A stretch of 64,000 nucleotides of DNA from Candidatus Promineifilaceae bacterium (lineage in GTDB: Bacteria > Chloroflexota > Anaerolineae > Promineifilales > Promineifilaceae). The DNA lies in contig CBDCVS010000003.1 of the NCBI GenBank assembly GCA_965223175.1, forward strand, positions 1,756,157 through 1,820,156. Reading direction: 5' to 3'. Numbering within the stretch: position 1 is the first letter of the stretch; each line of letters opens with the position of its first letter. Positions 32,698 through 36,885 of the stretch are shown here, one piece after another. A program made the translations under genes and the position numbers. Below the pieces are notes generated by a model. That model was given only the letters and a program-made list of their open reading frames with translations. It searched no databases and was not told the DNA's origin.

Positions 32698-34908
32698 ATG
32701 GCGCGTTTGTATCAAATCATTGCTCGTCATTTTAGTCCGAGCGAAATAACAGATTTAGCTACTAATTTAAATGTTTTTGTACCGCCAAATAGTGAGCCAA
32801 ATGCAATGGCGCGGGAGTTGTTTTTAGGGGCGCGACGCAATTTAAGGCTAGATGTTCTTTTTAATGAGGTCTACAGTTATAAAACCAGTCTACGCCTGGA
32901 TTTAGGCCCAAATCTATATGAACTAATTGCAGGGACTTTTAATGAACAGGAGGCGGCCGAAATAGCCCGAAAGCTAGGGTTTGACCGCCTTAACGTGGGC
33001 TTGGATGCGGGTAGTCTAATTGGCTGGAATAATGACAATTTCTTTAAGCGTCAAAAAGCAGAAACGCTGCAAAAAACGGCCGTCGAACACGGCAAGTTTG
33101 ATGATTTGTTGGCAGAAATGGAGAGCATTCGGTCGAACTTAGAGTTGACTCCCTTCAAACAATCTGCCCTATCAAAGAATAAATCACAAATAACAATCGG
33201 GGAGCCGGGCATTGAACCGACCAAATCGGATATAACCGTTATCGAATATGAAGATTTCGATATCTACATTGGCAAGCGAGAGTTAGACGGCCGTTATCCA
33301 ATGCGACTTTTAGATTCACCACGCGGCCGAATATTCGACAACCCGATTATGCAGCAATTCCCTTTAGAAGATCCATTCTTCCAGACCCCCATTAGATTCC
33401 TAAGCCGAATGAAAGCCGATCCTGAGGAATTGAAAGAGCTAGGCGCCCGTTTACAAACATTATTATTCCCCGGCGAAATATGGGAACGGTTTCAGGGAAG
33501 TTATGATGATGTCATTGGGAAACGTAATAAGGGACTACGTATTAGATTACAACTGCATCAGGATTCGGCCGAGTTAGCCCGACTACCCTGGGAATATGCC
33601 TTTGAATCACGCGACAACCGTTTTATGGCCCTTGATCCTAAAACGCCTATTGTTCGTTATATTGAACGCCGCTTCAAAACCCGTTCACTAGCCACCCAAA
33701 AGCCGAAGTTGCTGGTCGTCTTAGCCAGCCCCGACGACGAAAAATTTAAGCCCTTAGATCAAAAGGGCGAGATTGAGCAAATTCGACAGGCGCTCGACGG
33801 AATTGAAGGACTACACTGGGAACTATTAGCCGGTCGAGATACCTACAACCTGTTACAGAAGAAGTTAGTTACAGAGCAATTTGATATTTTCCACTTCATT
33901 GGACATGGGGACATATCTAATGGGATTGGCTCACTGGCCTTTGAAGATGCCGAAGGGAAATTGAAGCTTGTCTCCCACGAAAACCTCAATATTCTGCTCC
34001 AGAGCCGGGGGATAAAACTTGTCGTCCTGACAGCCTGCCAAACGGCCGAACCAGGAGAAGGCGACATATTTAAGGGCGTGGCTCAATCATTGGTACAAGC
34101 TGACATTCCAGCCGTAATCGCCATGCAGTTCATCATCAAATACAGTATTGCCCGGAACTTTACCCAACGCTTCTACGAGTACCTGGCCGCCTACCAACCC
34201 TTAGACAAAGCCTTGACCGAAGCCCGGATTAATGTCTATGGAGCAGAGGACAAGCCCCTTTCCTGGGGGATTCCGGTTCTATTTATGCAGTCTCCAGATG
34301 GCATTATCTGGGAACCAGGGACAAAGGCTGTGGCAGGAGAAAGTGGCCGCGCAACCTTTAGCAGCGGTGTCGTTATTAATTTATATGGGAATATGTATGC
34401 AGAGTATGTGGAGCAAAAAAATATGGGCGATCTAATTTACGGCGACAAGGTAGAAGGCGATAAAGTTGAAGGCGACAAAGCTGGGGGTGATATTTATAAA
34501 GGTATTACAATAAGCGGTGTTTCCGGCAGCGCAATTTCTTTGGGTGGCGGCGATGCCGTTGTTGGCACTCAGGTCAAAGATGTCCAAGGAAATGTAACCC
34601 TGGGTAGCGATGAAAAGCAACCACCCGACCTCGATAGCCTGCTCCTTCTGCTCGACCAAATCAACCAGGAATTAGCTGCAATTAAATCTAATTTAGAAGA
34701 TGATGATGCCGAGGAAGTAGCCCATACCTTACAAGAGGTAAAGGTTGAGGTACAGAAAGAACAACCCAACAATAGGCGGATAGCTCGGAAATTGAAAAAT
34801 ATTGCTGAAATTGTCCGCGATGCCGAACTCGTCGCAGCAGCCACAAACCAATTTGGGAACCAAATTGAGCAAGCGATTCAAATTGCCCAGTCCATATTTG
34901 GTGGCTAA
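32698..34908 (+). CDS. CHAT-domain (caspase-like) protease with N-terminal tandem helical EAD-like modules and a C-terminal repeat/coiled-coil region
   Basis: Caspase-type His/Cys dyad: FHFIGHGD and LVVLTACQTA. Typical CHAT context (LARLPWEY, IPAVIAMQ). Confidence 0.85.
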   Translation: MARLYQIIARHFSPSEITDLATNLNVFVPPNSEPNAMARELFLGARRNLRLDVLFNEVYSYKTSLRLDLGPNLYELIAGTFNEQEAAEIARKLGFDRLNVGLDAGSLIGWNNDNFFKRQKAETLQKTAVEHGKFDDLLAEMESIRSNLELTPFKQSALSKNKSQITIGEPGIEPTKSDITVIEYEDFDIYIGKRELDGRYPMRLLDSPRGRIFDNPIMQQFPLEDPFFQTPIRFLSRMKADPEELKELGARLQTLLFPGEIWERFQGSYDDVIGKRNKGLRIRLQLHQDSAELARLPWEYAFESRDNRFMALDPKTPIVRYIERRFKTRSLATQKPKLLVVLASPDDEKFKPLDQKGEIEQIRQALDGIEGLHWELLAGRDTYNLLQKKLVTEQFDIFHFIGHGDISNGIGSLAFEDAEGKLKLVSHENLNILLQSRGIKLVVLTACQTAEPGEGDIFKGVAQSLVQADIPAVIAMQFIIKYSIARNFTQRFYEYLAAYQPLDKALTEARINVYGAEDKPLSWGIPVLFMQSPDGIIWEPGTKAVAGESGRATFSSGVVINLYGNMYAEYVEQKNMGDLIYGDKVEGDKVEGDKAGGDIYKGITISGVSGSAISLGGGDAVVGTQVKDVQGNVTLGSDEKQPPDLDSLLLLLDQINQELAAIKSNLEDDDAEEVAHTLQEVKVEVQKEQPNNRRIARKLKNIAEIVRDAELVAAATNQFGNQIEQAIQIAQSIFGG

Positions 34909-34914
34909 ACGTCA

Positions 34915-35694
34915 ATGGACGAGAAATTGACATTTAGCCGAGCGAAGCTGGCTGCCTTTCTGGCCTGTCAGCGGCGGTTCCAACTGCGCTATCGAGCGGC
35001 GTTAGCCTGGCCGTTGGCCCCATTAGATGACCAAGGGGAAATGGCCCGCCAGCGGGGAGAACACTTCCATCAACTGCTCCATCGTCATTTTCTAGGGCTG
35101 CCAATCACAGATGAGATGGTAGAAGATAAAACGATCGGCCGTTGGTGGCAAACGTTCAAGCGTAATGGGCCAACGCTGCGAGAAGGACTACAATTTCCAG
35201 AACTCAGTCTCACCGTCCCAATCGGCCGTCATTTACTAACAGGTCGATTCGATTTACTGATTCTAGACGATGGAGCCGCCCAGATTTACGATTGGAAAAC
35301 AGACACCCGACCCCGCAAAACGGCCGACCTCGAAAACGACCTCCAAACCCGCCTATATCTGGCCTTGGCAGTCGAAGGCAGTTCAGCGTTGGAGCAGCCC
35401 ATTAACCCAAACGATCTTTCCCTGACCTATTGGTATGTCAATGAACCAGCGGCAGCCGTCACCATTCCTTACAGCGAACAGGCCCATCAAGTGAATTGGG
35501 CTGATCTGCTGGCAACTGTTGAGGAAGTTGAGACCCAATTAAGTACGGAAACGGTTCTGCCCTTGACCGACGATCTGCAAGCCTGTGTCCATTGTGCTTA
35601 TCAGATTTACTGCGGTCGTCAATCTGAAACGATACGCCTGGATACATGGGAGCTTGAAGAATCGGTGGTTGACCTGGCGCCGCCGATTCCATAG
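34915..35694 (+). CDS. PD-(D/E)XK nuclease, Cas4/AddB-like with an Fe-S cysteine set
   Basis: GRFDLLILDD ... IYDWKTD core and QTRLY. One N-terminal Cys (LACQRRF) plus C-terminal CVHCAYQIYC. Starts 6 nt after the CHAT stop. Confidence 0.75.
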   Translation: MDEKLTFSRAKLAAFLACQRRFQLRYRAALAWPLAPLDDQGEMARQRGEHFHQLLHRHFLGLPITDEMVEDKTIGRWWQTFKRNGPTLREGLQFPELSLTVPIGRHLLTGRFDLLILDDGAAQIYDWKTDTRPRKTADLENDLQTRLYLALAVEGSSALEQPINPNDLSLTYWYVNEPAAAVTIPYSEQAHQVNWADLLATVEEVETQLSTETVLPLTDDLQACVHCAYQIYCGRQSETIRLDTWELEESVVDLAPPIP

Positions 35695-35706
35695 GCAGCG
35701 GCTGGC

Positions 35707-36885
35707 GTGGATGTCGAAGATTTCTTCTTTCTTCTAAGCGAGAAAGGTCAGCGTTGGTTAGCAGAATTGGCGGGAACGGCCGTCACACCCAACAATCACC
35801 TTCAACTAGCAGAACGGCTGCGGGGACAGATGGCAACAACTCAAGCCCACGCCATATTAGAAACGGTATTACTCCGTCAGCGAGCTGAGAAAAAGTTTGA
35901 GCGAGCGGCCAAAATGTATTTCACCCGCCCCGCCTTGGAACAGGCTTCAGCCGAAATCGTCAGCCGCTACCGCGCCAAACGATTTCATGAGGCTGGCTTT
36001 AGGACTATCGCCGATCTCGGTTGTGGCATCGGTGGGGATGCGCTGGCACTGGCAGAAAAGGCCGAGGTTATCGGCGTTGATCTGTCCCCAATTCGGTTGG
36101 CGATGGCCCAAGAGAATGTGGCCGCTTACAAAAATGGAGCAGCCTTTCATCCACTCCAAGCTGACTTAGAAGAGTTAAAGCCGCTGAATGTAGCCGCCGT
36201 TTTTGCCGATCCGGGACGGCGAGATGAGCGAGGTCGGCGAATTTACTCCGTCCATCAATATCGGCCGTCTCTTGATCTGTTCCTCTCCTGGCGCAATGCG
36301 GTTCCTGATATGGGCATCAAGATCAGCCCTGGGGTTGATTATGCTGAACTGCCCGCAGATGCAGAAGTCGAGTTTATCTCCGTCAATGGGGAAGTGCGGG
36401 AGGGGGTATTGTGGTTCGGCCGTTTGCAACAAGGGGTCAAACAGCAAGCGACGCTGCTGCCTGCAAGAGATATACTAACCAGCGAAAACATCACAGATAT
36501 ACCCATTCGGCCGCCAGGGTTATATCTTTATGAGCCGGACGGGGCTGTTATTCGGGCTCACCTTGTCGAGCAGCTAGCTGAACAACTGAACGGAGCTAAG
36601 ATAAGTGATGATATTGCTTATATAACGGCTGATACCCACACGCCAACCCCCTTCGCCCGCTGTTTTGCCATAGAGGATGTCATACCTTTTCAGTTGAAAC
36701 GATTACGACACTATCTTCGGCAGCGGAAAATCGGCCGAGTGACGATTAAAAAACGCGGATCACCCCTTGATCCTGACTTCTTACGTAAACAATTACGCCT
36801 AAAAGGAGAGCAGGAACGAACTATCTTCCTAACTCAGTCAATGGGAGAACCAGTAGTGATAATTGGGTTTGAATTGAAGGAATAG
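35707..36885 (+). CDS. class I SAM-dependent methyltransferase with a THUMP-like C-terminal region
   Basis: Motif I is DLGCGIGGDALALA. GTG start 12 nt after the nuclease stop. The C-terminal assignment is from memory of this family. Confidence 0.65.
   Translation: MDVEDFFFLLSEKGQRWLAELAGTAVTPNNHLQLAERLRGQMATTQAHAILETVLLRQRAEKKFERAAKMYFTRPALEQASAEIVSRYRAKRFHEAGFRTIADLGCGIGGDALALAEKAEVIGVDLSPIRLAMAQENVAAYKNGAAFHPLQADLEELKPLNVAAVFADPGRRDERGRRIYSVHQYRPSLDLFLSWRNAVPDMGIKISPGVDYAELPADAEVEFISVNGEVREGVLWFGRLQQGVKQQATLLPARDILTSENITDIPIRPPGLYLYEPDGAVIRAHLVEQLAEQLNGAKISDDIAYITADTHTPTPFARCFAIEDVIPFQLKRLRHYLRQRKIGRVTIKKRGSPLDPDFLRKQLRLKGEQERTIFLTQSMGEPVVIIGFELKE

Follow-up and report, generated by a model that had tools for sequence, protein, structure and literature searches.

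A putative EAD-coupled CHAT effector in a variable slot beside resident nuclease and methyltransferase genes of a filamentous Chloroflexota bacterium

The 736-aa CHAT protease encoded at this locus is probably an EAD-coupled effector whose gene occupies a conflict slot of long standing next to housekeeping genes, so that the tandem protease, nuclease and methyltransferase genes would be functionally independent units. The window, which is the whole stretch of 64,000 nt that was analysed, was studied together with related genomes, which established how the genes are built, their domains and catalytic residues, their phyletic distribution and their synteny. The sequence-only reading had proposed a conflict module made up of all three genes. 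Its view of the CHAT protein as a conflict-type effector with adaptors held, whereas the union of protease, nuclease and methyltransferase in one functional module was not supported. The features of the locus are as follows.

32616–32678, plus strand: terminator-like hairpin (15-bp stem, loop of about 31 nt, U-rich tail), lying between the genes for the ABC-transporter ATPase and the CHAT protein
32698–34908, plus strand: protease gene, product P0001 (736 aa), with two EAD7-like modules, CHAT domain and Gly-rich plus TCAD2-like tail (ORF, Pfam, orthologs)
32704–32889, plus strand: EAD7-like adaptor module 1, aa 3–64 of P0001 (Pfam EAD7, HMM of the genome's own copies, AF2 model)
32905–33189, plus strand: EAD7-like adaptor module 2, aa 70–164, with an insert (own-copy HMM, similarity to EAD7-TIR proteins, AF2 model)
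33523–34269, plus strand: CHAT caspase-fold protease domain, aa 276–524 (Pfam, dyad conservation)
33904–33906, plus strand: codon of the catalytic His403 (dyad conservation)
34036–34038, plus strand: codon of the catalytic Cys447 (dyad conservation)
34333–34905, plus strand: C-terminal tail of P0001, aa 546–736, which contains GDK(V/A)(E/G) repeats and a Gly-rich stretch and ends in a TCAD2-like helical part
34915–35694, plus strand: stand-alone RecB/AddB/Cas4-type PD-(D/E)XK nuclease P0002, 259 aa (Pfam, motifs, AdnB profile match)
35707–36885, plus strand: class I SAM methyltransferase P0003 of the 3LL7 family, 392 aa, GTG start, THUMP-like domain at the C-terminus (Pfam, 3LL7 match)

The three ORFs are co-directional. 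As read from the sequence, the CHAT and nuclease genes are separated by 6 nt (TAA-acgtca-ATG) and the nuclease and methyltransferase genes by 12 nt (TAG-gcagcggctggc-GTG). The methyltransferase stop lies 4 nt (TAG-gggt-tta) from the stop of a convergent response-regulator gene (36890–37282). Folding of the upstream hairpin yielded −22.6 kcal/mol (z = −2.26), and the structure is also kept in a near relative. Most likely it is the terminator of the upstream glnHPQ-like ABC operon. ORFs, spacers and folding bore out the tight packing and the boundaries described earlier, and co-transcription of all three genes is probable. In the host genome no NTPase gene separates the ABC operon from the nuclease gene, which agrees with the earlier remark that no STAND or other NTPase sensor adjoins the operon. 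The kinase-headed STAND protein placed 27 kb away was recovered at window positions 1–5541 as a Pkinase-AAA-TPR-NB-ARC-TPR protein, in which the genome-wide EAD7 profile search found no EAD7. The host is a filamentous Chloroflexota bacterium of the Promineifilaceae type.

The proposed caspase-like protease with N-terminal adaptor-like modules was confirmed by its domains and catalytic dyad. Pfam assigned aa 276–524 to CHAT (PF12770, 2.3e-26), and the His-Cys dyad (H403 of an HG motif and C447) was unchanged in 36 of 36 CHAT orthologs. Pfam EAD7 scored 23–29 bits on aa 4–59 (E 6e-5 to 9e-7), below its cut-off of 32. An HMM trained on the EAD7 copies of the host genome itself matched module 1 over its full length with 24.6 bits, and Pfam EAD7 matched 16 of 18 orthologous N-termini (best 3e-20). 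In the AF2 model of aa 1–165 (pLDDT 92) module 1 forms four helices. Module 2 is the N-terminal module retained by every CHAT ortholog at the locus. It resembles the Pfam-valid EAD7 of EAD7-TIR proteins (E 9e-6), whose EAD7 is in turn closest to the N-termini of the CHAT orthologs. Foldseek searches of the PDB with the AF2 model gave no match at E < 1; a CARD (9frr) and a bacterial death-like domain (8srz) reached a probability of only 0.2–0.3 at a TM of 0.45.

The C-terminal tail, which may mediate oligomerisation or autoinhibition, varies from ortholog to ortholog and recurs in a C14 caspase-like protein encoded elsewhere in the genome (tail paralog at C2:606014–606187). TCAD2 (PF19971) matched aa 657–716 with 24.4 bits in hmmscan and 29.7 bits in a six-frame search (cut-off 27), and a weak match to PADLOC PDC-M14B was also observed.

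A search for an NTPase with the same adaptor elsewhere in the host genome was positive. The EAD7 profile matched 17 times, and the matches included a 1540-aa EAD7-nSTAND1-WD40 protein (C2:591824–596446) and about 13 other EAD7 proteins. Also present are a 332-aa AAA_16-EAD7 protein and fusions to SIR2, NUDIX, TCAD9 kinase, sigma-70 region 4 and WD40. The EAD7 copies closest to module 1 of P0001 are others than the copy on the nSTAND1 protein. P0001 probably belongs, as a stand-alone effector, to the EAD-coupled, NTPase-dependent conflict systems (immunity or programmed death) of multicellular bacteria. Through homotypic contacts its EAD7 modules would bind an NTPase that also bears EAD7 and is encoded at another locus; the best candidate for this sensor is the EAD7-nSTAND1-WD40 protein. 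Oligomerisation of the sensor would activate the protease by induced proximity, and the activated protease would cleave cellular or invader targets.

Kaur, Burroughs, Iyer and Aravind (eLife 2020; PMC7159879) described EAD-coupled NTP-dependent conflict systems in multicellular bacteria, among them vWA-MoxR-VMAP ternary systems whose effectors are caspase-like. P0001 looks like an effector of the kind predicted there, a type already described. Its architecture fits the EAD-coupling principle of that paper: a small all-helical EAD, here EAD7, is joined to a peptidase of the caspase superfamily. The effector carries the terminal EAD, albeit with the sub-cut-off score given above, and the same EAD resides on core NTPases of the same genome, namely EAD7-nSTAND1-WD40 and AAA_16-EAD7. 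Effector content (CHAT or TIR) differs between close relatives of the host, MoxR, vWA and VMAP/STAND genes occur at the same locus in relatives, and the host is filamentous. In contrast to the ternary systems, the effector stands alone: no core component (VMAP, iSTAND, GAP1 or MoxR-vWA) was found in the operon at the host locus. Dispersed EAD effectors are allowed for in the 2020 paper (PMC7159879). P0001 further differs by its two tandem EAD7-like modules and its Gly-rich/TCAD2-like tail. The alpha/beta-hydrolase partner reported beside VMAP-linked caspases (PMC7159879) was not seen; instead, relatives carry an unannotated family of about 400 aa, here called F400, upstream of CHAT.

Comparison across the family revealed a syntenic block consisting of ABC transporter, variable slot, nuclease, methyltransferase, response regulator and kinase genes. 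Among 76 species loci the slot held CHAT in 40, EAD7-TIR in 7 and MoxR-vWA-VMAP/STAND in 3; it was empty in 13, and 12 had another context. MoxR, vWA and VMAP/STAND genes lie in the slots of two genomes (G008 and G010), and F400 plus CHAT or a UG37 reverse transcriptase occurs there in relatives. Slot state follows clades on the nuclease plus methyltransferase tree, with TIR essentially confined to one clade: the CHAT state needs 10 changes, compared with a mean of 20.4 after shuffling, and none of 500 shuffles was as low. These patterns point to a long-lived, variable effector slot that separates the operon of an amino-acid ABC transporter from the gene for the nuclease. Adjacency of CHAT and nuclease, seen in 40 of the 76 loci, is therefore not unique to the host genome. 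The sequence-only reading had named such uniqueness, together with conservation of the nuclease-methyltransferase pair without CHAT, as grounds for giving up the module; only the second was observed. Many relatives have kept the pair without CHAT; in one of them, a genome of the same genus, the nuclease gene directly follows the ABC-ATPase gene. That genome carries a CHAT homolog on another contig, and a further genome (G032) has an F400 plus CHAT pair at another locus, in both cases without nuclease or methyltransferase.

The nuclease and methyltransferase were not confirmed as partners of CHAT by their wider distribution either. Both are single-copy in the host genome; therefore, none of the three further CHAT genes of this genome adjoins one of them. 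In a phylum sample of 301 genomes the nuclease was present in 33, mostly Anaerolineae families without the methyltransferase, and the methyltransferase in 32, mostly families without the nuclease, so that each is conserved as a single-copy gene in different lineages outside the family.

The sequence-only assignment of P0002 to PD-(D/E)XK nucleases with a Cas4/AddB-type cysteine set was upheld by Pfam (PDDEXK_1, aa 7–233, 2.3e-26) and by the ortholog alignment. D113, D126-x-K128, Q144...Y148 and C18/C224/C227 do not vary, and conservation of C233 reaches at least 90%; the cysteines form a four-cysteine set of the Fe-S type, followed by an acidic C-terminal tail that ends LEPxxP-like. P0002 shares the PD-(D/E)XK core, QxxxY motif and C...CxxCx5C cysteines with AdnAB/AddAB and Cas4, and the profile of the family weakly matched the AdnB nuclease domain (6PPU_B, E 0.004). 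CRISPR Cas4 was rejected, as the neighbours are ABC transporter, CHAT, methyltransferase and response regulator/histidine kinase genes without cas genes, and PADLOC Cas4 reached 23 bits only. At three of eight loci examined outside Promineifilaceae, belonging to two other families, the gene order is P-loop protein, UvrD/REP helicase, nuclease, RecJ, a repair cluster reminiscent of AdnAB/AddAB, which counts against a three-gene module. Homologs of helicase and RecJ are scattered in the host genome. Unlike AdnAB/AddAB nucleases, P0002 is a separate 259-aa protein and not part of a helicase. It appears to be a resident single-copy RecB/AdnB-type Fe-S nuclease of Anaerolineae, most likely processing DNA ends alongside UvrD-like helicases and RecJ.

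P0003 proved to be a SAM methyltransferase with a THUMP-like region, as had been supposed: Pfam detected Methyltransf_25 and Thump_like (PF18096, aa 317–386, 3.1e-23), and aa 69–384 matched 3LL7, a putative methyltransferase of Porphyromonas gingivalis, with an E of 7.7e-17. The full-length architecture, a class I methyltransferase followed by a THUMP-like domain, is shared with 3LL7, but the fixed position beside a nuclease gene is limited to one family. P0003 is encoded by a single-copy gene resident in several lineages of Chloroflexota and may act on RNA. A restriction-modification-like or MADS-type pair was rejected, given the complementary distributions outside the family, a motif IV (FADPGRR) that deviates from the (D/N/S)PP(Y/F) of DNA methyltransferases, and a PADLOC mad2 match limited to the SAM-binding region (aa 94–171).

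An alternative that we consider unlikely is co-option of the nuclease-methyltransferase pair as the constant downstream part of a conflict locus with a variable EAD7 effector (CHAT, TIR or VMAP) upstream, which is the module of the sequence-only reading. Both in transcription and in function this EAD7 effector would be tied to a nuclease effector, and the methyltransferase would serve in modification or self-protection. Consistent with this, a CHAT, TIR or VMAP/STAND gene lies directly upstream of the nuclease on the same strand in about 50 of 76 species, often with 6-nt spacers or 4-nt overlaps (six loci may serve as examples), and nuclease and methyltransferase have stayed adjacent after translocation to new contexts in a clade of five loci. 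Moreover, sister lineages retain an in-frame "adaptor-only" remnant without the protease core 6 nt upstream of the nuclease, and the nuclease tail has changed from ...EIEF to LEPxxP in Promineifilaceae. However, the adjacency represents essentially one ancestral juxtaposition, and the unrelated flanks (ABC transporter, response regulator and histidine kinase) are equally syntenic. The pair also occurs with an empty slot and in new, effector-free contexts, at the 13 and 12 loci counted above. The separate occurrence of CHAT, of F400 plus CHAT and of each of the two enzymes likewise argues against co-option, as does the divergent motif IV of the methyltransferase, and a TIR effector could not activate the nuclease by proteolysis. 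The linkage of conflict gene and nuclease is in any case long-lived, and functional coupling to the nuclease-methyltransferase pair within the family is conceivable.

The adaptor-only gene is under purifying selection (dN/dS 0.18). Two further readings seem unlikely to us. In the first, the resident pair would have been recruited in Promineifilaceae as the unchanging output of an immune locus of long standing, with the upstream EAD7 effector (CHAT, TIR, VMAP) swapped in situ. In the second, in-frame loss of the protease core would have given rise to adaptor-only proteins on two or more occasions, and purifying selection would have kept them. Such proteins might regulate the EAD7 network, either as dominant negatives or as scaffolds, and would then be bacterial counterparts of CARD-only or decoy proteins.

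Returning to an independent EAD-coupled effector, a housekeeping or developmental role of P0001 in cell division or filament integrity, similar to HetF, the cyanobacterial CHAT protease of heterocyst differentiation and cell division, is very improbable: vertical inheritance at one locus over family-level time, an invariant dyad, a filamentous host and a weak match to NCBIfam HetF would suit it, but that match (NF045509) has 49.4 bits against an equivalog cut-off of 1200, by which HetF identity was rejected, the flanking domains are other ones and include EAD7 adaptors typical of conflict systems, and the gene is dispensable in close relatives, the closest of which have lost it or keep no more than its adaptor, while one clade has EAD7-TIR in its place and in relatives it is accompanied by MoxR-vWA-VMAP/STAND genes and a defence-type reverse transcriptase.

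ORF calls and the sequence itself reproduced the three tightly packed genes of the sequence-only reading, with spacers of 6 and 12 nt between them and 4 nt to the convergent gene downstream. The window corresponds to C3:1756157-1820156 of a 6.56 Mb genome in three contigs (C2 and C3 are two of them), and the locus is arranged as follows.

29040-32605: glnH/P/Q-like amino-acid ABC transporter operon, upstream of the CHAT gene
32616-32678: hairpin at the 3' end of the ABC operon, 15-bp stem and U tail (-22.6 kcal/mol, z -2.26)
32698-34908 (+): P0001, 736-aa CHAT protein
34915-35694 (+): P0002, 259-aa nuclease (NUC)
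35707-36885 (+): P0003, 392-aa methyltransferase (MT), GTG start
36890-37282, convergent: single-domain response regulator, downstream of MT
downstream, convergent, with the response regulator: PAS-GAFx5 histidine kinase

The hairpin is most simply interpreted as the terminator of the ABC operon. A scan for sigma-70 promoters and terminators, whose models do not cover Chloroflexota promoters, found no more than expected from shuffles and revealed no terminator on the plus strand in the gaps of the three genes. Judged from their spacing, the CHAT, NUC and MT genes probably form an operon with one transcript.

The domain assignments made from sequence were supported by Pfam, NCBIfam and PADLOC for all three proteins. 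In Pfam, P0001 displayed a CHAT domain (aa 276-524, 2.3e-26) together with weak matches to EAD7, a small adaptor domain, at the N-terminus and to TCAD2 at the C-terminus, and its catalytic dyad His403/Cys447 was invariant in 36 orthologs. P0002 matched PDDEXK_1 nucleases over its full length. P0003 is a SAM methyltransferase of class I that ends in a Thump_like domain; among solved structures, the uncharacterised 3LL7 protein is nearest to it (7.7e-17), and DNA-methyltransferase motif IV is absent. According to PADLOC, the trio corresponds to no known defence system and gave just weak partial matches (SAVED_CHAT, PDC-M14B, Cas4 and mad2), the mad2 match of MT being limited to the SAM-binding region.

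Taken alone, the N-terminus of P0001 scored 29 bits against the EAD7 cut-off of 32. EAD7 was matched by 16 of 18 orthologous N-termini (best 3e-20), and an HMM built from the EAD7 copies of the same genome gave a full-length match to module 1. AlphaFold2 modelling from the ortholog alignment produced two four-helix modules (pLDDT 92). A Foldseek comparison of this adaptor model with the PDB returned no significant match, with CARD and a bacterial death-like domain appearing at low probability only. The sequence-only reading had proposed looking in the rest of the genome for an NTPase sharing the adaptor, and one was indeed found, an EAD7-nSTAND1-WD40 protein of 1540 aa (C2:591824-596446). In total, the genome contains a large EAD7 network of 17 hits, among them proteins combining the domain with nSTAND1-WD40, AAA_16 (AAA_16-EAD7), SIR2 (SIR2_2), NUDIX, a TCAD9/APH-like kinase, sigma-70 region 4 or WD40 propellers; further example sites are C2:2033388-2034509, C2:493912-494091(-), C3:2015659-2015844(-) and C3:982037-983569. 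Membrane proteins also belong to this set, and one protein carries two EAD7 domains. The distribution follows the EAD-coupling principle, in which one EAD copy resides on a core NTPase and others on effectors encoded adjacently or elsewhere in the genome (Kaur et al. 2020, PMC7159879). It provides concrete candidate partners for an EAD-EAD coupling that has so far been predicted only, namely the EAD7-nSTAND1-WD40 protein and approx. 13 other EAD7 proteins. The effector type as such was already predicted in 2020.

Two other genes of this genome were observed. A Peptidase_C14 (caspase) protein (C2:605081-606445), encoded 8.6 kb downstream of the EAD7-nSTAND1-WD40 gene, has a GDK-repeat/Gly-rich tail like that of P0001 (53% identity over 62 aa). 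At window 1-5541 (+), clipped by the window edge, a giant signalling protein combines a Ser/Thr kinase, an AAA_16/AAA_22 NTPase, TPR, an NB-ARC NTPase and TPR, i.e. two STAND-type NTPase modules within one polypeptide, and is devoid of EAD7.

For comparison of gene order, 60 related genomes were searched with each of the three proteins, and first 20, then 79 loci were retrieved. Relatives found with the NUC profile were all Chloroflexota MAGs labelled Promineifilaceae, Ardenticatenaceae, Ca. Leptofilum, Leptovillus or Trichofilum (filamentous Anaerolineae). A cyanobacterial origin, hinted at by the model names HetF, scytonemin and HrmK, was discarded in view of these labels. One copy of NUC was present in 35 of the 36 family genomes, MT was found in about 32 of them, and in many genomes the top CHAT match adjoined them. 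The block is syntenic: genes for an ABC substrate-binding protein, permease and ATPase are followed by a variable slot, NUC, MT and the convergent response regulator and GAF kinase. The slot was surveyed in 76 species loci, the window included.

Content of the slot between the ABC transporter operon and NUC (loci out of 76)
40: CHAT gene at most two genes upstream of NUC
7: EAD7-TIR
3: MoxR-vWA-VMAP/STAND
13: nothing, NUC abutted by the ABC gene or a small membrane gene
12: NUC-MT in a different context
1: contig edge

On a NUC+MT tree the slot state was strongly clade-structured: CHAT required 10 changes compared to a shuffled mean of 20.4, a value as low being reached in none of 500 shuffles, and TIR was essentially confined to one clade. 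This structure indicates that CHAT is an old resident of the slot and was lost or replaced several times; it was not inserted recently, and other genomes share it. EAD7-TIR takes the place of CHAT at L028:9120-10055(-) and in the clade of L045, L047, L062, L069, L079, L083 and L090. The Pfam-valid EAD7 domains of these TIR proteins were most similar to the N-termini of CHAT proteins at the same locus, which suggests that the effector was exchanged in situ behind a retained adaptor. Filamentous Chloroflexota harbor a family-wide, long-lived conflict slot with effectors apparently replaced in place. In other relatives, a pentapeptide-repeat protein occupies the slot, and in one (G002) a defence-associated UG37-class reverse transcriptase (L014:8954-11230(-); PADLOC RT_UG37, 3e-221) separates CHAT from NUC as an insertion.

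In close relatives, whose NUC is 73-80% identical, the protein encoded 6 nt upstream of NUC has merely 320-352 aa, corresponding to P0001 residues 1 to ~165 joined in frame to ~566-736. The whole CHAT core (~aa 165-565) is deleted, while both EAD7-like modules and the Gly-rich/helical tail are kept.

Adaptor-only orthologs, equivalent to window 32698-33190 plus 34390-34908
L113:2386-3444
L114:292-1311
L112:5944-6906, with a frameshift in the tail, unless the low-coverage contig is in error

On a NUC+MT tree the window was sister to one adaptor-only lineage, the other two grouped with the CHAT-less same-genus genome G001, and the full-length ortholog of G002 formed the outgroup. From this placement, the protease core was excised at least twice, with differing boundaries, and the gene was wholly lost once; a caspase-like effector was repeatedly pared down to its adaptor. 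Purifying selection acts on the adaptor-only genes (dN/dS for L113 versus L114: 0.18, compared to 0.12 for NUC and 0.16 for MT).

The proposal that protease, nuclease and methyltransferase constitute one conflict module was not borne out, as NUC-MT occurs without CHAT, CHAT without NUC-MT, and NUC and MT apart outside the family. In G001, NUC follows the ABC-ATPase gene after an 85-nt gap with no CHAT in between, and the CHAT homolog sits among unrelated genes on another contig; in G032, a CHAT gene paired with the unannotated family F400 is located away from NUC-MT. Neither NUC nor MT has a paralog in the window's genome, so its three other CHAT genes have no such neighbours. In a phylum sample of 301 genomes, MT was single-copy in 32, mostly from families without NUC, and NUC in 33, mostly from Anaerolineae families without MT; co-occurrence and adjacency were restricted to the window's own family. 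Given this separate distribution, each works without the other elsewhere. The lack of motif IV in MT and the helicase-RecJ neighbourhood of NUC in other families (see below) likewise speak against a single module.

Based on sequence, phylogeny and gene neighbourhood, on which all functional statements here rest, the locus probably comprises a CHAT protease belonging to a dispersed STAND/EAD7 network and two unrelated resident genes. The protease would be docked via EAD7 and activated by proximity within this network, with NUC and MT probably just sharing its transcript. The main alternative, which we regard as rather unlikely, is a family-specific co-option in which NUC-MT became the constant part of a conflict locus; it draws support from the long-lived, tightly spaced association of conflict genes with NUC and from the adaptor-only genes retained at the same position. 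A developmental, HetF-like role of the CHAT protein is very improbable, the protein reaching 49 bits on HetF, for which the cut-off is 1200. With the protease assigned to the EAD7 network and its neighbours regarded as residents, the locus illustrates that housekeeping genes can share a tidy-looking "operon" with an immune or suicide effector, and that annotating defence systems through guilt by association calls for caution.

The motifs D...D-x-K, QxxxY and C...CxxCx5C of NUC were invariant, and its profile weakly matched the AdnB nuclease domain. At three loci from two other Chloroflexota families (L118:594-8104, L123 and L121), genes for a 708-aa P-loop protein, a UvrD/REP helicase, the NUC ortholog and RecJ are co-directional. 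This cluster resembles an AdnAB/AddAB-like end-resection machine that has been split, with the nuclease domain as a separate gene. Together, cluster context, motifs and AdnB match point to NUC as a DNA end-processing nuclease partnered by such a helicase, giving a class-wide stand-alone RecB-type nuclease a likely role. Homologs of these partner proteins exist dispersed in the window's genome, those of the UvrD-like helicase pair at C2:1870273-1872615 and C3:2055127-2057049. The acidic C-terminal tail of NUC (window 35620-35694; orthologs A1, L116-L123) ends in a conserved motif. Other Anaerolineae families have (F)EQIGEIEF or PEIEF, which resembles the C-terminal tip of SSB, and the window's family has LEPxxP. 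The tail probably serves as a docking peptide for a putative partner. For the THUMP-like methyltransferase family, a functional study was not found in the literature search; one paper (PMC10193983) lists such an enzyme, without activity on a steroid acid.

Slot history, adaptor-only derivatives, the split helicase-nuclease cluster and the F400 family are undescribed in the literature searched and stand beside the main finding, outside it. In many relatives, the gene directly preceding CHAT encodes an F400 protein (~400 aa). F400 proteins appear beta-rich and share the conserved C-terminus TSSDVR(L/H)G. They had zero Pfam or PADLOC matches, and they could not be tied to the alpha/beta-hydrolase reported as a partner of VMAP-associated caspases.

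F400 copies
L017:11124-12341(-)
L014:13454-14821(-)
L019:10581-11876(-)
L025:5707-7068(+)
L016:5294-6880(+)
C2:1573053-1574312, window's genome, adjoining a 1259-aa CHAT protein

In the slot of G010, F400 is fused to a VMAP-like protein bearing two EAD7 domains.
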